Positions 7,143 through 27,665 of a DNA stretch of 27,847 nucleotides are shown piece by piece. The translations under genes were made by a program, and so were the position numbers. The notes beneath the pieces are model-generated. The model was not told the origin of the DNA, searched no databases, and was given only the letters and a program-made list of their open reading frames with translations. Positions within the stretch are counted from its first letter, which is position 1. Each line of letters opens with the position of its first letter. This DNA is from Candidatus Gastranaerophilales bacterium (GTDB lineage: Bacteria; Cyanobacteriota; Vampirovibrionia; Gastranaerophilales; Gastranaerophilaceae), in contig JAZUSV010000240.1 of assembly GCA_045606885.1 (NCBI GenBank), positions 1 to 27,847 on the forward strand, in the 5' to 3' direction.

Positions 7143-8321
7143 ATGTCAATTAATATTCAAGAAGCGCTAACCGGACTATGGAATTCTACCGGTATTGTAA
7201 ATTTTGTTTTAGAAAAAGACCCAAATATTGATAACTGCATTGAGCAGTTAATGCACACTCACGGTCAAATCATAATGGTATTCATTTGTATGTTTCTATT
7301 ATGGCTTGGTATTAAAAAACAATTTGAACCACTTTTGTTAGTTCCAATTGCATTTGGTGGCTTATTGGCAAACTTCCCTTGCGACCATAGTTTCCAAGAA
7401 TTTATTTACAAGGTTGGTATCGACCCACAAATTGGTATCTTTCCACTAATCATTTTTATGGGCGTAGGCGCTATGACAGACTTTGGTCCATTGTTAGCTA
7501 ACCCAAAAACAGCTTTATTGGGTGGCGCTGCCCAATTTGGTATTTTTGGTGCATTATTCTTAGCTCTACTTTTGGGCTTCAATTTATCACAAGCAGGCTC
7601 AATCGGTATCATTGGTGGTGCAGATGGCCCTACTTCAATTTTCGTAACTTCAAGATTAGCTCCTGATTTACTAGGTGCAATTGCTGTTGCAGCATATTCT
7701 TATATGGCATTAGTTCCACTAATTCAACCACCAATTATGAGATTATTAACAACTCCAGAAGAACGTAAAATTCAAATGAAACAATTAAGAGAAGTATCTC
7801 AAAGAGAAAAAATCGTATTTCCTTTAATGGTATTAACTCTTTGTGCAATCTTCTTGCCAGACGCTTGTCCTTTGGTTGGTTGCTTGGCATTCGGTAACTT
7901 ATGTAGAGAATGCGGAGTAGTTGAAAGACTTTCAAATACAATGCAAAATGCTTTAATTAACATTGTTACAATTTTCTTAGGCTTAGCTGTTGGTTTAAAA
8001 CTTCAATTTGACCACTTCTTAACCGTTGAAACATTGAAAATCTTGGTTCTTGGTATTTTTGCATTCTCTTTAGCAACTGCAGCTGGTGTATTAATGGCAA
8101 GATTGATGAATGTATTTTCTTCAAAAGACAACAAAATCAACCCACTTATTGGTGCAGCTGGCGTATCAGCAGTTCCAATGGCGGCTCGTGTTGCTAACAA
8201 AGTTGGTTTAGAAGAAAATCCTCAAAACTTCTTATTAATGCACGCTATGGGTCCAAACGTAGCAGGGGTTATTGGTTCAGCAGTTGCTGCTGGGGTATTA
8301 CTTGCAATTTGCCCACACTAA
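7143..8321 (+). CDS. oadB: Na+-translocating decarboxylase beta subunit
   Basis: [71 protein letters not shown]. Confidence 0.96.
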
Positions 8322-8338: not shown

Positions 8339-8374
8339 AAAAAAAGAGTTGGAAATAATCCAACTCTTTTTTTT
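8339..8374 (+). terminator. Intrinsic terminator after oadB
   Basis: 8-bp stem GAGTTGGA (8346-8353) / TCCAACTC (8359-8366), 5-nt loop, 8-T tail and upstream A-tract. Confidence 0.9.
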
Positions 8375-8390
8375 AAGATTTTTTAATAAA

Positions 8391-8420
8391 TTGCCTTAGC
8401 AAAAAATAAAATTATATAAT
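8391..8420 (+). promoter_or_regulatory. Sigma70-type promoter of the fliM/N-O-P-Q-R cassette
   Basis: TTGCCT (8391-8396), 18-nt spacer, TATAAT (8415-8420). Confidence 0.6.
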
Positions 8421-8456
8421 ACACGTGGGGTTTTATAGCCAAAAACGGATATCTTA

Positions 8457-9680
8457 GTGCTTAATAAGACAATAAATATTTTTGAAAATACCGACTTTAA
8501 CACCTTTGCTTCAGAAATTGGTGGAGCAATTAAAGGTGCTTGCGAAAAATTTTGGGAACAAGACATAAAAATCGCAATACAAGCAGTTAACAGCTTCAGA
8601 GAAATCCGTGACGAAAAACTTATTTCAAATATTGATTTTTTCTCAAGCCAAATTAAAGTAGAAAACCACAAGCCTATTTTAATTAGACTAAGCAAAGAAT
8701 TTATTGAATACATCCTAGATTCTAATCTTAGAAGCTCAAACGCCAAATTTGAATTCACAAAATTAACCCCGCTCGAAGTAAAAATTTTGAATGGTTTTTG
8801 CGAATTTTTATACAAAAGATTAAAAGAAGTGCTAATTTCTCCAAAAGAAGCAAAATTAAGCGAAAAGAGCGAAAAATACGTTAATATTGTATTTATTACA
8901 GAACCTAAAAACGAATTATGCTCAAAAATTATGATATCCATACCCCAAGATAGAATTAATTTAGCGCCACTTAAAAAAACGATATCCTTTAAAGATGAAG
9001 ACTTTTTGACTTCAAAAACAACCGTGAAAATTAAAGCAGGTAGCTCAAAAATTACATTTGATGACCTTCAAAACCTTGCACCTGATGACATTATCGTTTT
9101 AGAAGAAAGTGAATTATCGAAATTAACGCTAATTTCAGGAGATGTTGAACAAAAATTCAACATCAAAATTAATCCATCTTTAATTGTTAATCTTAACAAT
9201 GACGAAGATGACGAAGAAGATATACAAAACACTTATGAAGAGGTAACCATGGGAAAAAATTTGTGGGACGATATACAAATTGAAATAGATGCCGAATTTG
9301 ATAAAGTTAAAATGACAATTGGCGAACTAAAACAAATTACACAAGGTCAAATCATAGATTTGGGCTCAATTTTCGACAATGAAATTTCACTATATGTTGA
9401 AGATAGAAAAGTTGCCAAAGGCGAATTGATTATTATAAACGATAGATATGCCGTTAGATTAAACGAAGTGTTAAACTCCAATAGTCAAAGTGCGCCAATT
9501 AACGCAAAAGTTAACGTTGCAGCGCAACCGCAACCTAAACCTCAGGCTGCCACACAAGCAAAACCACAGGCACCTCAAACAAAACCACAGGCACCTCAGG
9601 CAAAACCAACACCAGCCAAAGTGCAACCAAAAGCACAAAATGATACAGAAGAATTTGACTATTCAGACTTTGAAAAATAA
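8457..9680 (+). CDS. FliM/FliN-family C-ring protein: degenerate FliM middle domain + SPOA1 + FliN-like SPOA2 (SctQ-like architecture) + low-complexity tail
   Basis: LTPLE (FliM LTxIE); SPOA1 (TTVKIKAGSSKITFDDLQNLAPDDIIVL); SPOA2 (LWDDIQIEIDAEFDKVKMTIGELKQITQGQIIDL...VAKGELIIINDRYAVRL); first gene before fliO-P-Q-R. Confidence 0.85.
   Translation: MLNKTINIFENTDFNTFASEIGGAIKGACEKFWEQDIKIAIQAVNSFREIRDEKLISNIDFFSSQIKVENHKPILIRLSKEFIEYILDSNLRSSNAKFEFTKLTPLEVKILNGFCEFLYKRLKEVLISPKEAKLSEKSEKYVNIVFITEPKNELCSKIMISIPQDRINLAPLKKTISFKDEDFLTSKTTVKIKAGSSKITFDDLQNLAPDDIIVLEESELSKLTLISGDVEQKFNIKINPSLIVNLNNDEDDEEDIQNTYEEVTMGKNLWDDIQIEIDAEFDKVKMTIGELKQITQGQIIDLGSIFDNEISLYVEDRKVAKGELIIINDRYAVRLNEVLNSNSQSAPINAKVNVAAQPQPKPQAATQAKPQAPQTKPQAPQAKPTPAKVQPKAQNDTEEFDYSDFEK
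9240..9251 (+). promoter_or_regulatory. Putative internal translation start (GAGGT-AACC-ATG, Met265) for a separate 143-aa FliN-like product
   Basis: In-frame ATG at 9249 directly before SPOA2, preceded by the SD-like GAGGT at 9240-9244. Confidence 0.6.
9559..9608 (+). repeat. 21-bp tandem repeat (~2.4 copies) encoding (A/T)KPQAPQ
   Basis: CAAAACCACAGGCACCTCA starts at 9559 and 9580; a partial copy starts at 9601. Confidence 0.85.
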
Positions 9681-9694
9681 GGAACCATTTTAAA

Positions 9695-10240
9695 ATGATG
9701 ACATACGTTACAGCTTTTATTTTCTACACTCTTGCGATGATTGGCATTATGCTAATCGGATTTGTTGTGTATAAAAAAACATACGAAAATGCAAAAGGTG
9801 ACAATAAAGGCTTAATTAAAATAATTGATAGCACCCCAATCGGCAACAAAAAAATGCTTCTTGTAGTGAAAATAAAAAATGAAAAATTTTTAATTGCCTC
9901 AGGAGTTGAGCACACAACATTTTTATCAAAACTAGAAGACGACAATACAAGCGAAAAAGCGGAATTTAGCAAAGAAATAACCAAAGAAGAAGTACAAAGA
10001 AGTGTTCTTGATGAAATCTATGAACAAAATTTTGCACCAACAAAAAAAGAGGTGCGTTTTGATGACCCTCAAAAAGTAAGAGCAGCAAAAATTCAAAAAC
10101 AATTCAAAGAATTATACGAAAAAGACGAAGAACCTCAAATTAAAACAAACAAAGAGGCTAACAATCGCAAAGAAGTAATGAAACAACTGCTTAAAAAATT
10201 AAATTCTGAATCGAATATCAAAAACGGGAGCAATTTTTAA
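9695..10240 (+). CDS. fliO: FliO-like export gate chaperone with charged C-terminal extension
   Basis: N-terminal TM helix, then IKIIDSTPIGNKKMLLVVKIKNEKFLIASGVEHTTFLSKLE (FliO beta domain); sits directly before fliP with a 1-nt overlap. Confidence 0.8.
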   Translation: MMTYVTAFIFYTLAMIGIMLIGFVVYKKTYENAKGDNKGLIKIIDSTPIGNKKMLLVVKIKNEKFLIASGVEHTTFLSKLEDDNTSEKAEFSKEITKEEVQRSVLDEIYEQNFAPTKKEVRFDDPQKVRAAKIQKQFKELYEKDEEPQIKTNKEANNRKEVMKQLLKKLNSESNIKNGSNF

Positions 10241-10881
10241 TGGATAGTTTATTAAAAGACATAAACCCTGTTTTCCAGCTATTAATTACAATGGCGGCAT
10301 TTTCGCTATTGCCATTTATTTTTGTTTCAATGACCCCATTTTTAAGATTTACCGTTGTTTTTTCAATGCTAAAAACCGCAATGGGAACAAATTCTGTTCC
10401 ACCAGCAATAACCTTAATTGGCTTATCTTTAATTTTGACAATTTACACAATGTCTCCAACTTTTGACAACATGTATAAGGCATATCAAGTGCCATATCAA
10501 AAAAATAAAAATGTCGTAGAGGCACTAAACGCAAGCTCTAAACCTCTAAAAGAATATATGCTGAAACAAACACGTCAATCAGATTTAGCGTTTTTTGTTG
10601 AAAAAACAAGGCGTGTCGCTCCTAAAACACCAGATGAGTTAACGCTATGGGAAGTTGCACCTGCATATATTATTTCTGAACTTAAAACAGCTTTTGAAAT
10701 CGGTTTTATAATATATGTGCCGTTTATTGTTTTAGACCTTGTGGTCGCAAACATATTGCTAGCACTCGGTATGTTTATGTTATCTCCTCAAATCGTTTCA
10801 ACTCCGTTTAAACTTTTAATATTTATCGCAGTTGACGGATGGAGCTTAATTGTAAAAGGACTTGTGGAGAGTTTTAATTAA
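10240..10881 (+). CDS. fliP: Type III export gate subunit FliP/SctR
   Basis: LLPFIFVSMTPFLRFTVVFSMLKTAMG, VPP, PAYIISELKTAFEIGF, PFKLLIFIAVDGWSLI. Confidence 0.95.
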   Translation: MDSLLKDINPVFQLLITMAAFSLLPFIFVSMTPFLRFTVVFSMLKTAMGTNSVPPAITLIGLSLILTIYTMSPTFDNMYKAYQVPYQKNKNVVEALNASSKPLKEYMLKQTRQSDLAFFVEKTRRVAPKTPDELTLWEVAPAYIISELKTAFEIGFIIYVPFIVLDLVVANILLALGMFMLSPQIVSTPFKLLIFIAVDGWSLIVKGLVESFN

Positions 10882-11378
10882 TGGAAGCTTTAGTAGAATT
10901 TTTAGGAAAAGGATTTATGGTAATGCTATCAGTTAGCTTACCTTGTGTTCTAATGGCGGCTCTTGTTGGTTTAATTGTTGGTATTTTACAAGCAGTTACC
11001 CAAGTTCAAGAACAAACAATCGCAGCAGCACCTAAAATTATTCTTGTATTCCTTACAATAGTCGTTTTAGGCGGTTATTTTATCAAAATTCTAACAAATT
11101 ATATTTACGAAGGAACAAACCTTGCTTTTAATATAATTCCTAAAAAAGAAGATTACGTTCTTCCGCCTAATTATTACAAATATACTCGTCCGTTTAGCGC
11201 CGAAATGCAAGATAAAATTAAAAATGACAGCTCTTTAAACAAAGCGCTTTTAAACAACGGCAACATCTCTTGGGATAAAAAAGCAACAAAAAGACAAATT
11301 TACATCAACTCTAAACAAACACCAACAGTTGAACCTAATTTCATTGAAAGAATTAAAATTCAACAAAACAGCAAATAG
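10881..11378 (+). CDS. fliQ: Export gate subunit FliQ with ~78-aa C-terminal extension
   Basis: GLIVGILQAVTQVQEQTIAAAPKI signature; 165 aa versus ~89 aa for canonical FliQ. Confidence 0.92.
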   Translation: MEALVEFLGKGFMVMLSVSLPCVLMAALVGLIVGILQAVTQVQEQTIAAAPKIILVFLTIVVLGGYFIKILTNYIYEGTNLAFNIIPKKEDYVLPPNYYKYTRPFSAEMQDKIKNDSSLNKALLNNGNISWDKKATKRQIYINSKQTPTVEPNFIERIKIQQNSK

Positions 11379-11387
11379 GAAATAATA

Positions 11388-12167
11388 TTGGACGAAATTT
11401 TAAAACAGTTTGCTCTTTATTTTCCGGAACTAAACAATGCTTTGGGTGCCGGCATTATGGTGTTTTTAAGACTCGTTGGAATGATGAGATTAGCTCCTGT
11501 TTTATCTAAAAGCGAAATTCCTGCAATGGTAAGATTATCTTTTGCGCTAATTTGTACAGTAATTTTAGTTGGAGTAATTAAGCCCCAGCCACCTGGTCCC
11601 GACACACCAATTTTTATGTGCATGTTTTTAAATTTTATTTTTGGTGCAATCATAGGTTACGTTGCAAACTGCATTTTAGCAGCGATACTTGCTGGCGGAG
11701 ATATGATTAACACGCAAATGGGTATGTCTTCAGCAATGATAATGGACCCAAGCACAAAAAGCCAAGTAAGTATTATGGCAAACTTTTTTTCAGTCTTGAC
11801 TCTATTAATTTTTATTTATTCTGGTGGTGTATATTGGCTATTTAATGCACTTATTAAAAGCTTTGAACTATTTCCTATGTATAGCGTTAATTTCCATTTT
11901 GAAAACATTGTTAATGTCGAATATTTAAGCAAAATTACAGGAAACATTTTATTCACAGGCTTACACATTGCAGGTCCAATTTTGCTTGCAACCTTAGCTC
12001 AAGATATCATTTTAGGGATTATTTCAAAAACAGCACCACAAGTTAACGTATTTTCTTTAAGCTTCTTATTTAAACCTGTAATGGGTGCTTTTATTTTGAT
12101 TGTAATTTTGCCAATGCTAATCAATGTAATAACAGATTATTTAACATCACATGCTAGCATATTTTAA
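11388..12167 (+). CDS. fliR: Export gate subunit FliR
   Basis: FLRLVGMMRLAP, AGGDMINTQMG, ISKTAPQVNVFSLSFLFK; multi-TM; TTG start with AGGA RBS. Confidence 0.95.
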   Translation: MDEILKQFALYFPELNNALGAGIMVFLRLVGMMRLAPVLSKSEIPAMVRLSFALICTVILVGVIKPQPPGPDTPIFMCMFLNFIFGAIIGYVANCILAAILAGGDMINTQMGMSSAMIMDPSTKSQVSIMANFFSVLTLLIFIYSGGVYWLFNALIKSFELFPMYSVNFHFENIVNVEYLSKITGNILFTGLHIAGPILLATLAQDIILGIISKTAPQVNVFSLSFLFKPVMGAFILIVILPMLINVITDYLTSHASIF

Positions 12168-22634: not shown

Positions 22635-24401
22635 GTGAACGAACACGTTAAATTATTAATTGAGGACATTAAAAAGCTTTGGCTTAAATTAGACATAAAT
22701 CAAAAATTTTCTATTGCGGCATTACTAGTAGCAATGTTTGTCGTGGGCATATTTTTCATCTTTAAAGCAACTGAACCAAATTGGACAGTTTTATATTCAG
22801 ACTTATCTAAAGAAGATGTTAAAGGAATAACCGAAAGCTTGAAAAAAAGCGGTTGGGCATACAAGCTTTCAGAAGACAAAACAGCAATTCTAGTTAGAAA
22901 TCAAGACAAAGAAGACTTAAGACTTTTTGTTGCAGAAAATGACTTAATTAAAGACACCACAGGCGGTTTTGAATTATTAGACGACCTTCAATTAGGTTCA
23001 ACTGATTTTAAAAACAAACTTACAAAACAAAGAATATTCCAAGGAGAATTAACTCGCTCTATTGAAAAAATCAATGGTGTTAAAAAAGCAAGAGTTCAAC
23101 TAGCTGAACCTGAACGCTCAATTTTTTCAGACAACGACGAAGAGCCTTCTGCAAGCGTTGTTTTAATTTTAGAACCAAGCGTTAGATTAAAAGCAAGCCA
23201 AATTCTTGCAATTAAAAATCTTGTAGCATATTCTGTTCCAAGATTAACAAACGACAGAGTGTTTATTACTGACCAATTTGGAAATGTTTTATCTGAAGAT
23301 GTTTCAAAAAATTCTTCAGACATGCAAACATATAGAACAAACTTTGAAAAAGAAGCAGCTAAAAAAATCAAAGATACTCTTGAAACCATCATGGGAAAAG
23401 ACAATGTTTCTGTTCAAGTTTCTTCCGTTATGGATTTTAATCAAACAAGAGCAACAATTGAAAGCTATACTCCAAACAAAGACACAAACGCAGGCGTTGT
23501 TTTAACTCGTCAAGGAGAAAAGGAAGTTTATTCAAACCCTAAGGATTTACCTTCCAACCAAAAACAACAACAAAACCAAGGTGCTGCTCCAACTCAAGCA
23601 CAACAACTAGCGCAAGCTCAAATGAACAATATCGCTGCAGCGCAAAACGAAAATCCGCTATTAAACCAAGCGCAAGGAGCAAGTGCAGCGCAAAATGTGG
23701 TTGAATTACCATTAAACGAAACACCTGCTAAAACAACAAATTATTACGACACTGAATACGGCAAAAATAAAGATGACGTTAAAAAATTAAGCTACGAAAA
23801 AGAAAAATCAGCAACAACTTACGCTGTGACAAAAGAAATCAAGCAAGTAGTTTATGCTCCAGGTTCAGTCATTAGAATGAGCGTTGCAGTTGCCGTAAAT
23901 AAAATTTTAACAGATGCAGAAAAAGATGAAATTAAAAATCTTGTTATGGCAGCAGCTGGTATGGATTCTTCAAGAGGCGATGTTGTAAACGTATCTAGCT
24001 TAAAATTCACAGGCATAGATAAAACTGAAGAACTAGAACAAAGCAAAAAAGAACAACAAGAATTCGTTTTAGAAGTACTAACATTCATATTTAAAAATGT
24101 TTCTCCTGTATTTATTATTCTAATTCTTGGTTTAATTGCGCTACACAACTTTGGAAATATATTCAAAGCTCCAAAACCAGAAGAAGACGAAATTATTACA
24201 GAAGAAGAAACTTTTGACAATCTTCCAAGTTTTGACCCATATTTAGCACTTCAAAACAACCAAACAAACACCGATGATTTCTATCAACAAGAAATTCAAT
24301 TTACTTCTGTTGTAGACAAAAAGAAAAGCGAAATCATCAACTCAATTCTTGAAAATCCTGAAGAAGCAGCAAGAATTCTAACATCATATATTAAAGAATA
24401 A
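22635..24401 (+). CDS. fliF: MS-ring protein FliF
   Basis: TM1, WTVLYSDLSKED, GFELLD, QGELTRSIEKINGVKKARVQLAEPERSIF, PSASVVL, RGDVVNV, TM2 and the FliG-binding C-terminal helix NPEEAARILTSYI. Confidence 0.95.
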   Translation: MNEHVKLLIEDIKKLWLKLDINQKFSIAALLVAMFVVGIFFIFKATEPNWTVLYSDLSKEDVKGITESLKKSGWAYKLSEDKTAILVRNQDKEDLRLFVAENDLIKDTTGGFELLDDLQLGSTDFKNKLTKQRIFQGELTRSIEKINGVKKARVQLAEPERSIFSDNDEEPSASVVLILEPSVRLKASQILAIKNLVAYSVPRLTNDRVFITDQFGNVLSEDVSKNSSDMQTYRTNFEKEAAKKIKDTLETIMGKDNVSVQVSSVMDFNQTRATIESYTPNKDTNAGVVLTRQGEKEVYSNPKDLPSNQKQQQNQGAAPTQAQQLAQAQMNNIAAAQNENPLLNQAQGASAAQNVVELPLNETPAKTTNYYDTEYGKNKDDVKKLSYEKEKSATTYAVTKEIKQVVYAPGSVIRMSVAVAVNKILTDAEKDEIKNLVMAAAGMDSSRGDVVNVSSLKFTGIDKTEELEQSKKEQQEFVLEVLTFIFKNVSPVFIILILGLIALHNFGNIFKAPKPEEDEIITEEETFDNLPSFDPYLALQNNQTNTDDFYQQEIQFTSVVDKKKSEIINSILENPEEAARILTSYIKE

Positions 24402-24414
24402 GAAAGACAGATAA

Positions 24415-25437
24415 ATGGCAAATATACGTTTAGAACAAATGACACCAACACAGAAGGTTGCAGCCCTTTTAATTACCCTAGGGCCAAGCGCAGCCTCTGA
24501 AATTATGAAAAATATCGAAGATGACGGTGCTCTTGAACAAATTACAATCGAAATTGCCGGCTTAGCAAAATTACCACAAGATGTCATTGAATCTATCGTT
24601 GATGAATTCCACGCAGTCTTTCAAGCTTCTTCAATGCTTGCAGCAGGCGGTATGGCGTACGCTCGTGAACTATTAGAAAAAGCTTATGGAGCTAACGAAG
24701 CAAATGACATTTTAAACAGATTAGTTACAATTTTAAACTCTAATCCATTCCAATTTTTTAACGAAGCAGACCCTGTGCAATTAGCTACTTCCTTCCAAAA
24801 TGAAAATCCTCAACTGATTGCGCTAATTTTGGCATATTTAAAACCAGAACAATCTGCAAAAGTTTTAAATTGCTTAGCTCCTAACATTCAACATCGTGTT
24901 GCACTAAAAATTGCACAAATGCAAACAACAAATCCTGAAGTTATTTCAGAAGTTGAAAAAATTGTTGAATCGAGATTTTCTAATGTTGTTGCTTCTGACT
25001 TCTCACAAGCAGGCGGCACAAAAACTCTTGCTAATATCTTAAACAGCACAGATAGGGCAACTGAAAAGAATGTAATTGAAATGATGGAAGTTGAAACCCC
25101 TGAATTAGCAGAAGATGTAAGAAGTCTTATGTTCGTATTTGAAGACATTATCCAGCTTGACGATTCTTCTATTCAAAGGGTTTTAAGAGAAGTTGACTCA
25201 AGAGATTTAGCTACATCTTTAAAGGGTGCTAAAGAAGAAGTTAAACAAAAAATTCTTAAAAACATGTCAGAACGTGCACAAAGCGTACTTTTAGAAGATA
25301 TTGAATACATGGGTCCTGTTAGAACCAAGGAAGTTCAAAAAGCGCAATCAAAAATTGTTGGCGTAATCAAAGCGCTTGAAGCAGTTGGCGAAGTTACTAT
25401 CTACCGTGGTGGTCAAGAGGACGAATTAATTGAGTAA
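24415..25437 (+). CDS. fliG: C-ring/rotor protein FliG
   Basis: QKVAALLITLG, GGMAYARELL, MFVFEDI, LKGA, NMSERA, GPVR. Confidence 0.96.
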   Translation: MANIRLEQMTPTQKVAALLITLGPSAASEIMKNIEDDGALEQITIEIAGLAKLPQDVIESIVDEFHAVFQASSMLAAGGMAYARELLEKAYGANEANDILNRLVTILNSNPFQFFNEADPVQLATSFQNENPQLIALILAYLKPEQSAKVLNCLAPNIQHRVALKIAQMQTTNPEVISEVEKIVESRFSNVVASDFSQAGGTKTLANILNSTDRATEKNVIEMMEVETPELAEDVRSLMFVFEDIIQLDDSSIQRVLREVDSRDLATSLKGAKEEVKQKILKNMSERAQSVLLEDIEYMGPVRTKEVQKAQSKIVGVIKALEAVGEVTIYRGGQEDELIE

Positions 25438-26371
25438 GTTAAAATTAAATAAAATTAATTTTGATGAATCAGATTTTCTTGTTGAGGTAACTAAAGAAAA
25501 AACAAAAGAAACAAAAACAGACAAGCCTTCACAAGTTGATATTGAAATGCAAAAAAAAGCTCAAGATTTATATACTGAAGCCAAGCTTATTTTAAATCGT
25601 GCCAAAGATGAAGCCCAACAAATTGTTGACAATGCAAATAAAGAAGCTCTTGAAATAAAAGAAAAAAACGAAGAAGAAATATTAAAAAGAAAAGAAGAAA
25701 TAATAGAGCAAGCAACTCAAAGGGCAGATGAAATAATTGAAAATGCTCAAAAAAAATCTCAAGAAGATACCCAAAACTTGATAAATTCTTCAAAAGAAAA
25801 TATTGAACAAGAAAGAATAGAAACTATTAAAAATGCCTATGAAGAAGGGCACAGGGAAGGACTTGAGCATATTCAAGAAGAACTTGAAGAAAAAATTGCT
25901 GACTTCAATAACTTTTGCAAAAATCAATATGAAGTAAGAGATAAAATTTTAAAATCAGCAAACAAAGATATCTTGGACTTAGTTATAAATATCTCAAGAA
26001 AAATTCTTTTGAAAGAAATCGATTTCGCTGTGCTTGATAAAATAATTAAAAGCACAATTTCTCTTTTAGAGAAAAAAGAAAATATAAGCATAATTTTGTC
26101 TGAAAAATATGCAAAATTATTATATGAACACCAAAAAAAGAGTTTGGCACAAGATATTGAATTTAATTTTGAAGATTTTAAACAATATGACAACTTCAAT
26201 ATTGTCTACAACCCTTCATTTGACGAAGATACGATTATTGTAGAAAACCTAAAAGAAAGATATGACGCATCAGTTAACTCTCAGCTAGACGTTATTATAA
26301 GAAATATTTATGATAATTCTCAAAATGGAAAACTAGATTTAGAACAATACACGCAAGATGAAGCTGAATGA
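25430..26371 (+). CDS. fliH: FliH/SctL-type ATPase stator protein
   Basis: Long coiled coil with AYEEGHREGL (AxxxG(xxxG) repeat); lies between fliG and fliI and overlaps both. Confidence 0.85.
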   Translation: MSKLKLNKINFDESDFLVEVTKEKTKETKTDKPSQVDIEMQKKAQDLYTEAKLILNRAKDEAQQIVDNANKEALEIKEKNEEEILKRKEEIIEQATQRADEIIENAQKKSQEDTQNLINSSKENIEQERIETIKNAYEEGHREGLEHIQEELEEKIADFNNFCKNQYEVRDKILKSANKDILDLVINISRKILLKEIDFAVLDKIIKSTISLLEKKENISIILSEKYAKLLYEHQKKSLAQDIEFNFEDFKQYDNFNIVYNPSFDEDTIIVENLKERYDASVNSQLDVIIRNIYDNSQNGKLDLEQYTQDEAE

Positions 26372-27665
26372 ACTTGAAAAAATCGTTAATAGCTCTAAAC
26401 CAATTTCAAAAATCGGAAGAATTATTGAAATCATTGGGCTTACAATAATTGCTGATGGCCCTGTTTCTTCCATTGGGGATTTGTGTCACATTGTTCAAGA
26501 CGGAATTAAAGACATAATTTATTGTGAAGTTGTAGGTTTTAGAAAAGATTGTGTTTTATTGATGCCCCTAGGTTCGATTGAAGGACTAAGAGCAGGCGCA
26601 AAAGTAATTAACACAGGAACAAGCATGAAAGTTAAGGTTTCTGAAACTTTATTGGGAAGAGTTTTAGATGGGCTTGGAAACCCAATTGACGATAAAGGCG
26701 AAATCATCGCCGACGAATATTACCCAACAAACGCCGCTATTATTAATCCAATGGATAGAAAACCAATTGATGAACCACTTTCTCTTGGACTTAGAGCAAT
26801 AGATGGATTAAACACTATAGGAAAAGGTCAAAGGGTAGGAATTTTTGCAGGCTCAGGCGTTGGAAAATCAACAACTCTTGCAATGATGGCAAAAAATACA
26901 GAAGCTGACATCAACGTAATAGCGCTGATTGGAGAACGTGGAAGAGAAGTTAGAGAATTTATTGAAAACACCATGGGTGTTTCTGGGATGAAGCGCTCAA
27001 TTGTTGTTTGTGCAACATCTGAACAACCTGCCTTAGTTAAAATTAAAGCAAGCTTTGTAGCTTGCGCTATTGCTGAATATTTTAGAGACAAAGGCAAAAA
27101 TGTTCTTTTTATGCTAGATAGCGTAACTCGTATCGCACTAGCACAAAGAGAAGTAGGACTCGCAGTTGGTGAACCGCCAGCAACTCGTGGTTATACTCCT
27201 TCCGTTTTTGCGCTTTTACCTAAATTTTTAGAACGTGCAGGAGCCAGCAAAACAGGAACAATCACAGGTTTATATACTGTTCTTGTTGAAGGGGACGATA
27301 TGAATGAACCCATTGCAGACGCCGCAAGAAGTATTTTAGACGGTCACATTGTTTTATCTCGTGCCCTTGCTCATAAAAATCATTATCCTGCAATTGATAT
27401 TTTGCAAAGCATTTCTCGTGTTATGAATAACGTTGTAGATGATGAGCATAAAGCTGCAGCAAGCAAAATCAGAAATCTAATGGCAAGTTATGCTAAAAAC
27501 GAGGACCTGATTAGCATTGGCGCATACGCAAAAGGAACGGATGCTTCAACAGACAAAGCTATTGCACTAAACGACAAAATCAATGCATATTTAATTCAAT
27601 CCCTTGAAGAAAACTCTGATTTTGAAATTGCCAAAAATGAATTAATCAATTTATCTAAATTATAA
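26358..27665 (+). CDS. fliI: Type III export ATPase FliI/SctN
   Basis: GQRVGIFAGSGVGKST (Walker A), IGERGRE, LFMLDSVTR, GEPPATRGY, ILDGHIVLSR, YPAIDILQSISR. Confidence 0.96.
   Translation: MKLNELEKIVNSSKPISKIGRIIEIIGLTIIADGPVSSIGDLCHIVQDGIKDIIYCEVVGFRKDCVLLMPLGSIEGLRAGAKVINTGTSMKVKVSETLLGRVLDGLGNPIDDKGEIIADEYYPTNAAIINPMDRKPIDEPLSLGLRAIDGLNTIGKGQRVGIFAGSGVGKSTTLAMMAKNTEADINVIALIGERGREVREFIENTMGVSGMKRSIVVCATSEQPALVKIKASFVACAIAEYFRDKGKNVLFMLDSVTRIALAQREVGLAVGEPPATRGYTPSVFALLPKFLERAGASKTGTITGLYTVLVEGDDMNEPIADAARSILDGHIVLSRALAHKNHYPAIDILQSISRVMNNVVDDEHKAAASKIRNLMASYAKNEDLISIGAYAKGTDASTDKAIALNDKINAYLIQSLEENSDFEIAKNELINLSKL

Follow-up and report, generated by a model that had tools for sequence, protein, structure and literature searches.

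An SctQ-like gene with a probable internal translation start in a second, flagellum-derived type III secretion gene set of Gastranaerophilales

Introduction

A single gene in a Gastranaerophilales genome, judged by the conservation of its nucleotide sequence, very probably makes two proteins: a long one with the architecture of the injectisome platform protein SctQ, and a short, FliN-like one initiated internally at the boundary between its two SPOA domains, SPOA1 and SPOA2. The gene is part of a second type III secretion system (T3SS) gene set (set 2), which coexists in some genomes of the order with the canonical flagellar genes (set 1). We consider it likely that this gene (the target) is the SctQ-type platform gene of set 2, with one mRNA and two starts giving the long and the short product. 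Injectisomes are characterised by internal initiation in their sctQ genes; to our knowledge, only preliminary hints of internal initiation existed before in flagellar-type systems.

The target lies in contig C240 of a MAG (1.44 Mb, 66% complete, 31.8% GC). The term window is used here for the whole stretch of this contig that was analysed, 27,847 nucleotides in length. The Gastranaerophilales are a non-photosynthetic group of uncultured gut bacteria, related to cyanobacteria, within the Melainabacteria/Vampirovibrionia.

Gene and domain organization

The features of the target and its surroundings are collected in Table 1. When checked against the sequence, the original prediction was correct in all its coordinates, namely the open reading frame (ORF), the GAGGT at 9240–9244, the in-frame ATG at 9249 that encodes Met265, and the length of 143 residues for the internal product. 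It was also correct in noting that only one of the five glutamate codons of the linker is GAG, at E262, the other four being GAA. The proposed layout of SPOA1, acidic linker and SPOA2 is borne out by Pfam matches and by an AlphaFold2 model, for which 33 homologs were used. SPOA2 is matched by the Pfam family FliMN_C at residues 271–339 with 77 bits. The match of the same family to SPOA1 is weak (DNA 9009–9140, residues 185–228, 19.7 bits), and in the model this region forms a SPOA-type β domain with strands at 187–237. The model comprises an N-terminal domain (residues 10–170, pLDDT ∼90) and two SPOA-type β domains, with the linker and the tail disordered.

Table 1. Location of the target gene, its predicted signals and products, and adjoining set-2 genes in the window.
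Feature	Position	Strand	Evidence and remarks
Terminator-like hairpin	8339–8373	+	15-pair stem, then T run; ends the OAD_beta gene and separates the operon
Promoter-like site	8391–8420	+	TTGCCT-18-TATAAT; TATAAT..GTGGGG block conserved among orthologs
Full-length SctQ-like ORF	8457–9680	+	407 codons, 46.2 kDa product; GTG start with average Shine-Dalgarno (SD) sequence
N-terminal CheC/FliM-middle-like domain (residues 10–170)	8484–8966	+	AlphaFold2 model, Foldseek; CheC phosphatase motif, EIDAL and GGxG all absent (motif search)
SPOA1 (residues 185–237)	9009–9167	+	Weak FliMN_C match, AlphaFold2, Foldseek, TIGR02551
Acidic linker (residues 245–264)	9189–9248	+	Variable sequence, disordered in model
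Internal SD sequence GAGGTA (codons E262-V263)	9240–9245	+	Conservation, spacing, pairing
Internal start codon ATG (Met265), in frame with the ORF	9249–9251	+	Conservation across orthologs
Predicted short product, SPOA2 and tail	9249–9680	+	143 residues, 15.9 kDa; putative translation
SPOA2 (residues 271–339), FliN-like	9267–9473	+	FliMN_C match
Pro/Gln/Lys/Ala-rich low-complexity spacer (∼residues 345–395)	9489–9641	+	Sequence, model; disordered
C-terminal acidic-aromatic motif EEFDYSDFE (residues 398–406), in both predicted products	9648–9674	+	Conservation; E398, F400, D401, Y402, S403, D404, F405 and E406 invariant among homologs
fliO' (set 2)	9695–10240	+	Pfam, NCBIfam
fliP' (set 2)	10240–10881	+	FliP and SctR model scores about equal; below FliP cut-off
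fliQ' (set 2)	10881–11378	+	Pfam, NCBIfam; 165 residues, ∼85-residue C-terminal extension
fliR' (set 2)	11388–12167	+	Pfam, NCBIfam; last gene of the operon, convergent BioY gene next

The FliM-like middle domain claimed for the N-terminal part holds at the level of the fold and not at that of the sequence family. Foldseek matches this domain to FliM middle domains, CheC and FliY in the PDB (probability 1.0, TM-scores by target of 0.5–0.6). PF02154, the Pfam FliM family, has no match in the ORF, and its sole match in the genome is on contig C151. Despite the CheC-like fold, motif searches of the protein did not detect a CheC-type phosphatase motif ([DS]xxxExxN...P), nor did they detect an EIDAL CheY-binding peptide or a GGxG motif. 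The part of the protein spanning SPOA1 and SPOA2 aligns to a FliM(SPOA)::FliN fusion (PDB 4yxc/4yxb) over ∼166 columns. In a comparison of the whole model with the Swiss-Prot models, ranks 1–10 are all occupied by SctQ proteins (Y4yK, Spa33, YscQ, SpaO, SsaQ), which align over residues ∼18–346, and B. subtilis FliY and FliM follow directly after these ten.

The NCBIfam SctQ model TIGR02551 aligns with residues 189–337 at 61.3 bits, below its cut-off of 100.8, and the FliN model TIGR02480 reaches 67.2 bits against a cut-off of 84 and covers only the last domain. The FliY models of NCBIfam match the C-terminus alone. A precomputed Pfam match on the protein is to PF28396, named SepQ_C.

As modelled, the architecture of the target is that of SctQ, with an N-terminal domain followed by SPOA1 and SPOA2. 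FliN is a small protein with one SPOA domain that scores at least 84 bits with TIGR02480, a description that does not apply to the ORF of 407 residues; it is solely the predicted internal product of 143 residues that is FliN-like. FliY combines the phosphatase motif with one SPOA domain, and the target has two SPOA domains and no such motif. A prediction of the complex between residues 180–345 and two copies of residues 265–345, run without controls, scored 0.01 and speaks neither for nor against such a complex.

A second, paralogous type III secretion gene set

The target was originally placed in an operon with flagellar fliO. The fliO neighbour is indeed there, but fliO, fliP, fliQ and fliR beside the target are members of the paralogous set 2. 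By its genomic linkage and the sequence relationships of its partners, the target itself belongs to this flagellum-derived T3SS gene set, and not to the swimming flagellum. Set 2 consists of fliOPQR', flhA', flhB', fliE', fliF', fliH', fliI' and flgB'C'; the loci that partner the target operon are flhB'-SLT-fliE'-fliF'-ORF316-fliH'-flhA' and flgB'-flgC'. Two near-complete relatives, G001 and G007, each encode two copies of FliP, FlhA, FlhB, FliF and the T3SS ATPase (FliI). The set-1 copies pass the flagellar equivalog cut-offs (FliP 276, FlhA 827 and FlhB 362 bits), whereas the set-2 copies reach neither the flagellar nor the Sct cut-offs (209 bits with the flagellar and 205 bits with the Sct model for FliP'; 683 and 596 bits for FlhA'). 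The fliP adjoining the target is of the set-2 type. The window also contains a fliF-G-H-I cassette (22635–27665), which is set 1; its fliG (24415–25437), which the original prediction had cited, is thus part of the canonical set.

To describe the distribution of the two sets, 151 Gastranaerophilales genomes with a completeness of at least 85%, representing 43 genera, were surveyed. The target occurs as a single intact copy in all of them and FliM in 48, so that the co-occurrence with the flagellum that would mark a FliM is not seen. The scores of full-length FHIPEP proteins are bimodal: a protein of ∼720–736 bits is present in every genome, and one of ∼857–890 bits only where FliM was found. 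Thus, the FlhA of the set-2 type is found in all 151 genomes and that of the set-1 type only alongside FliM. One genome (G009, 97% complete) has FliP, FlhA, FlhB, FliF and FliI in single copies, always of the target-linked set-2 type, with the target included, and searches of it found no FliM, FliN, FliG or flagellin.

The FliG position of set 2 is taken by ORF316, which shows 64–89% identity among homologs. It has no match in Pfam or NCBIfam, its BLASTP comparison with FliG gives an E-value of 0.01 over 43 residues, and its model is all-helical; neither Foldseek nor VIA yielded a convincing match. Its identification as FliG or SctK is unsupported by Pfam, NCBIfam, BLASTP and Foldseek.

Set 2 could be a second true flagellar basal body that borrows the distal rod, hook and filament of set 1 and survives as a decaying relic in aflagellate lineages, in which case the target would merely be an odd C-ring protein of set 2. 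The flagellar-type FliE, FlgB and FlgC and the long FliF of set 2 are in keeping with this explanation, and the linked genes identified so far include neither a secretin nor a needle gene. We nevertheless regard it as unlikely, given the single intact copy of the target throughout the 151 genomes and 43 genera, two thirds of these genomes being without a FliM match, the conservation of ORF316 among its homologs, and the internal SD sequence and ATG (described below) that are kept in the target ortholog (L042) of the aflagellate genome G009. Intact copies and a retained signal in aflagellate genomes indicate purifying selection rather than decay.

Conservation of the internal ribosome-binding site and start codon

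An SD core is present in ∼5% of random 16-nt windows of the genome (4.8% background), and a single SD-like motif in front of one ATG is therefore not significant. For comparison with this background, among 691 long ORFs the SD core is found upstream of the start in 40%. The original prediction had named conservation of the SD sequence and Met265 in orthologs as a check, and both are conserved far beyond chance, as described in the following.

E262, V263 and M265 are each retained in 118–119 of 120 homologs, right after the hypervariable linker. DNA was read for 48 species-level loci, 37 of which are close orthologs (50–65% identity). Codon 262 is GAG in all 37 close orthologs. GAG accounts for 0–33% of the codons at 13 other conserved glutamate columns and for 16.8% of glutamate codons gene-wide. 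Codon 263 is GTA in 36 of the 37, and other conserved valine columns have mixed codons. An unbiased scan for rare codons over every column of the gene gave codon 262 the top rank and codon 1 the next. Codon-context bias was considered as a source of the GAG-GTA pair and ruled out by the genome-wide figures, which are 9.5% GAG before a G-initial codon and 2.7% GAG-GTA among 1171 Glu-Val dicodons.

Pairing energies, calculated with an anti-SD tail assumed to have the canonical sequence, single out the same site. In 48 of 48 species loci, no other in-frame internal ATG pairs as well with the anti-SD as the boundary ATG, which has a mean of −7.1 kcal/mol versus −0.68 kcal/mol for 192 other internal ATGs, of which 2.6% reach −5 kcal/mol. 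The spacing of GAGG genome-wide peaks at −11 to −9, and the GAGG of the target begins at −9 from the ATG.

The signal is found again in more distant relatives, encoded by other residues. Divergent orthologs (36–40% identity) have AAGGAGA, AGGAGGA or TTGGGAGC/TTAGGAGC, each in front of an ATG. To widen the sampling, 20 further orthologs were taken; they represent eight other families of the order and five other genera of the family to which the window belongs, and 19 of these were readable. In 18 of the 19, GGAGG, GGAGA or GAGG is followed by an ATG or GTG that lies 6–12 codons upstream of the conserved Trp270; the residues encoded by the SD sequence are GGN, NGD, QED, KED, SGGN and EGED, among others. 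The remaining one, L097, is the only ortholog of the order that is ambiguous at the boundary. In total, 66 of the 67 Gastranaerophilales orthologs carry the SD and start signal at the SPOA1/SPOA2 boundary, and every ortholog has an uninterrupted frame through the junction. Thus, the start signal remains constant in function while its sequence, its position and the start codon drift, as one would expect of a genuine site of initiation. This comparative evidence strongly supports a functional internal ribosome-binding site and start codon at the boundary.

Three orthologs from Vampirovibrionales have no distinct SD sequence and ATG at the boundary; their genomes have the same operon of target, fliO, fliP, long fliQ and fliR. 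The internal start is therefore not universal to the family of proteins, and a design with two starts may be confined to Gastranaerophilales.

The constraint on synonymous sites demonstrates selection on the nucleotides and does not by itself identify what is selected. The purine-rich motif could accordingly belong to some other RNA or translation element, for example an SD-like pause that aids folding, with the full-length protein alone being made. This possibility seems quite improbable to us. A start codon would be superfluous at a pause site, and yet nearly all orthologs of the order have an ATG or GTG at an SD-appropriate spacing while position and residues drift; the spacing agrees with that of the real starts of the genome; and the RNA around the internal start is mildly more open than elsewhere in the gene (mean z +0.78), although this last point is not decisive.

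Two further candidates were rejected. A programmed −1 frameshift, with an SD sequence, ∼8 nt and an A-run as in dnaX, does not agree with the alignment, since orthologs do not share the A-run that follows the ATG: they continue with AGC AAA AAT, GAT AAA AAT or AAT AAG AAC, and distant clades lack an A-run. Seven short database proteins begin near Met265 and might suggest split versions of the gene. The two of them whose contigs were looked up are truncated by the end of the contig, and none of the seven was counted as a split-gene version.

Predicted strength of the two starts

The start codon of the full-length protein in close orthologs is GTG (28), ATG (5) or TTG (3). Its anti-SD energy in the target is −3.4, compared to a genome median of −3.8. 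The internal start uses ATG and has an anti-SD energy of −7.0, which ranks it in the top 16% of the starts of the genome.

The gene upstream of the target (7143–8321) encodes the oxaloacetate decarboxylase β subunit (OAD_beta, Pfam), with the terminator-like hairpin and the promoter-like site of Table 1 following it. A weak consensus scan of the + strand between 9000 and 9249 found no promoter-like site. From these sequence features we infer that both proteins would be translated from one mRNA, and that the short form would be at least as abundant as the long form. Such a ratio fits the 1:2 complex of full-length and short form that has been reported for SctQ proteins (PMC4832279, PMC8553256), among them Spa33 (PMC4832279).

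Relationship to flagellar motor proteins and injectisomes

The genome that contains the target also has a canonical fliM (334 residues, PF02154 and FliMN_C), followed by fliN (107 residues) and a receiver-domain gene, on contig C151. Two more SPOA proteins are encoded elsewhere in the genome, one of 251 residues after fliL on C75 and one of 96 residues, which is FliN-like, on C250. The original prediction read the target as a fusion of the FliM and FliN of the motor and named a separate canonical fliN, present and in use, as a finding that would speak against it. The presence of fliN on C151 matches this in part; together with fliM, it contradicts the motor fusion. The other part of that reading, an SctQ-style architecture with an internal start, is upheld by the fold matches and by this conservation. 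That the target is the FliM and FliN of the motor in one gene, replacing separate fliM and fliN, is suggested by its location directly upstream of fliO (the position of fliN in the E. coli fliLMNOPQR operon) and by a FliM-middle-like fold combined with SPOA domains, but is highly improbable in view of the canonical pair in the same genome, the intact target in the 103 genomes, among the 151, that gave no FliM match, its persistence in G009 without FliG and flagellin, and the missing EIDAL peptide and GGxG motif.

The relationship to injectisomes is less direct than the architecture implies. By sequence, SPOA2 scores higher with flagellar FliN (39.7 bits) than with SpaO (26.4) or HrcQB (20). 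A tree of 15 FlhA/SctV sequences recovers the SctV clade with a support of 100/100 and places FlhA' on a long branch outside it, and also outside the group of flagellar and set-1 proteins (83/88); with such thin sampling (n=15) and possible long-branch attraction, the tree cannot settle the origin of set 2. Its position outside both groups suggests that FlhA' is neither a recent copy of set 1 nor a member of the Sct clade. The partners identified beside the target and at the other set-2 loci are FliO/P/Q/R, FliE, FliF and FlgB/C, none of them specific to injectisomes; FliE, FlgB/C and the long FliF are flagellar traits. Because SPOA2 is nearer to FliN, FlhA' falls outside SctV and set 2 has flagellar traits, we do not file the target as an SctQ. 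It probably works like SctQ, either by convergence or by deep common descent, and the likeness may be convergent.

Proposed model and implications

By analogy with SctQ, the 46-kDa and 16-kDa products most likely form an SctQ-like platform. One mRNA would begin at the promoter-like site near 8391–8420 and be translated from two sites. The weak site (GTG 8457, average SD) would give the 46-kDa protein, consisting of the CheC/FliM-middle-like domain, SPOA1, linker, SPOA2 and tail, and the strong internal site (GAGGTA 9240–9245 and ATG 9249) would give the 16-kDa FliN-like protein, consisting of SPOA2 and tail. If the products behave as in SctQ, SPOA1 of the long form would associate intramolecularly with its SPOA2, and the short form, as a dimer, would dock onto the pair so formed. 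The resulting assembly could hold the FliH'-FliI' ATPase complex beneath the FliPQR'-FlhB'-FlhA' gate.

More tentatively, set 2 as a whole could be an unrecognised type III export machine with no part in motility, ancient in Vampirovibrionia and present in every sampled Gastranaerophilales genome. It might have been derived independently of injectisomes or be their deep sister, and a platform of two SPOA products would have arisen there too. We view this wider proposal as plausible, though somewhat doubtful. If true, it would offer a second natural experiment on the conversion of a C-ring into a sorting platform. In these gut commensals of a different phylum, clear selection acts on the two-start solution within an apparatus derived from the flagellum, and this provides a testable case for the transition from FliM and FliN to SctQ. 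Earlier genome reports had read the apparatus as an "incomplete flagellum"; it is a separate gene set, and the "partial flagellar sets" of Gastranaerophilales are worth re-reading as a dedicated export system. For annotation, gene callers give one product for this gene, where two are probable.

Comparison with known systems

Internal initiation is established for YscQ, SsaQ, SpaO, Spa33 and HrcQ. In SctQ, an internal SD sequence and start between SPOA1 and SPOA2 give rise to the FliN-like SctQ-C (PMC4832279, PMC8553256). The target shares with these proteins (YscQ, SpaO, Spa33, SsaQ, HrcQ) the N-terminal domain, SPOA1, SPOA2 and the internal SD and start, and they provide the best structural matches to its whole model. 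However, it differs in its flagellar-type partners (FliO, FliE, FlgB/C and the long FliF), in its score with the SctQ model (61 versus a cut-off of 100.8 bits), in the addition of a PQ-rich tail with the invariant EEFDYSDFE end, and in its host, a non-proteobacterial lineage of gut commensals.

HrcQA/HrcQB of Pseudomonas syringae represent the same outcome of two proteins, one being the long N-terminal part and the other an SPOA protein of its own, but are encoded by two genes, whereas the target is one gene with two predicted starts. The Salmonella FliM(SPOA)::FliN protein (PDB 4yxb/4yxc), which aligns with the SPOA1-SPOA2 part of the target, is an engineered motor protein, in contrast to a natural gene outside the motor.

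Partial flagellar sets have been described in most Gastranaerophilales, and a secretory function has been postulated for them (bioRxiv 10.64898/2026.04.24.720558; PMC5877343). As in other reduced flagellar exporter sets, genes for the basal body and for export are retained without the filament. However, these surveys read them as an incomplete flagellum, whereas here a separate paralogous set stands beside a full one in flagellated members of the order; we found no description of such a set in Gastranaerophilales in the literature searched.

The nearest flagellar parallel is FliY of T. maritima, for which an apparent short product, FliN*, arises from an internal start after a purine-rich stretch (McDowell et al. 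2016, PMC4832279). FliN* was seen only upon expression in E. coli, and the authors considered the result preliminary; E. coli fliN is another hint of internal initiation in flagellar genes (PMC4832279). Both FliY and the target are flagellar-type SPOA genes with an apparent or predicted short FliN-like product from an internal start. FliY, however, combines a CheC phosphatase domain with a single SPOA domain, whereas the target has two SPOA domains and no phosphatase motif, and the case for the target rests on the comparison of 67 orthologs.

Gene context of sets 1 and 2

Downstream of the operon headed by the SctQ-like gene (set 2), 10 kb away, is the canonical (set-1) fliF-fliG-fliH-fliI cassette, and the same distance separates the two in G007, a relative carrying both sets. 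No match to set-1-type fliF, fliG, fliH or fliI was found anywhere in the genome of aflagellate G009, which has set-2 copies only. In set 2, ORF316 occupies the place where fliG would be. This all-helical, 316-residue protein, whose homologs share 64–89% identity, has no match in Pfam or NCBIfam and no convincing match by fold comparison; it may be an adaptor that links the ring to the SctQ-like protein.

The window's genome (G000) contains four SPOA genes in total, counting those for the 251-residue and 96-residue proteins; other families of the order have in their stead FliM and an adjoining gene with an open frame of 338–403 aa. A third FHIPEP protein (∼485 aa), found in all four genomes checked, the aflagellate one included, corresponds to the cytoplasmic domain of FlhA alone (model positions 321–655).

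Coordinates of features in the window and fetched loci (L). Primes denote set 2.
Feature	Location	Context
Leader block GTGGGG..TATAGC..AACGGAT	window 8427-8456	5' leader of SctQ-like gene
EEFDYSDFE motif	window 9648-9674	C-terminus of SctQ-like protein
FliQ'	window 10881-11378	
Set-1 fliF-fliG-fliH-fliI	window 22635-27665	
251-aa SPOA protein	L009:1138-1893 (G000 C75)	after fliL
Lone FliN-like SPOA gene, 96 aa	L010:14995-15285 (G000 C250)	
Third FHIPEP protein	G000:C107:5688-6722; L078:4645-6096 (G009)	
ORF316	L070:11296-12246 (G007); L075:9378-10331 (G009)	between fliF' and fliH'

Conservation of the SctQ-like gene and its operon

The C-terminal motif of the SctQ-like protein is invariant, follows a variable PQ-rich spacer and has the appearance of a docking peptide; in more distant homologs it is lengthened to ...FDYSDFELEDEDI. 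The block in the short leader, conserved among close orthologs, may tune the weak GTG start.

In three Vampirovibrionales loci (L099-L101), the operon of the SctQ-like gene, fliO, fliP, long fliQ and fliR is conserved, preceded by rpsT and two glycosyltransferase-9 genes; in these loci neither the internal Shine-Dalgarno sequence nor the ATG is evident. Their FliQ' orthologs (166–174 aa) also carry a C-terminal extension, which in the window's FliQ' is hydrophilic and ∼85 residues long, giving a protein of 165 residues compared to the usual ∼89 of FliQ.
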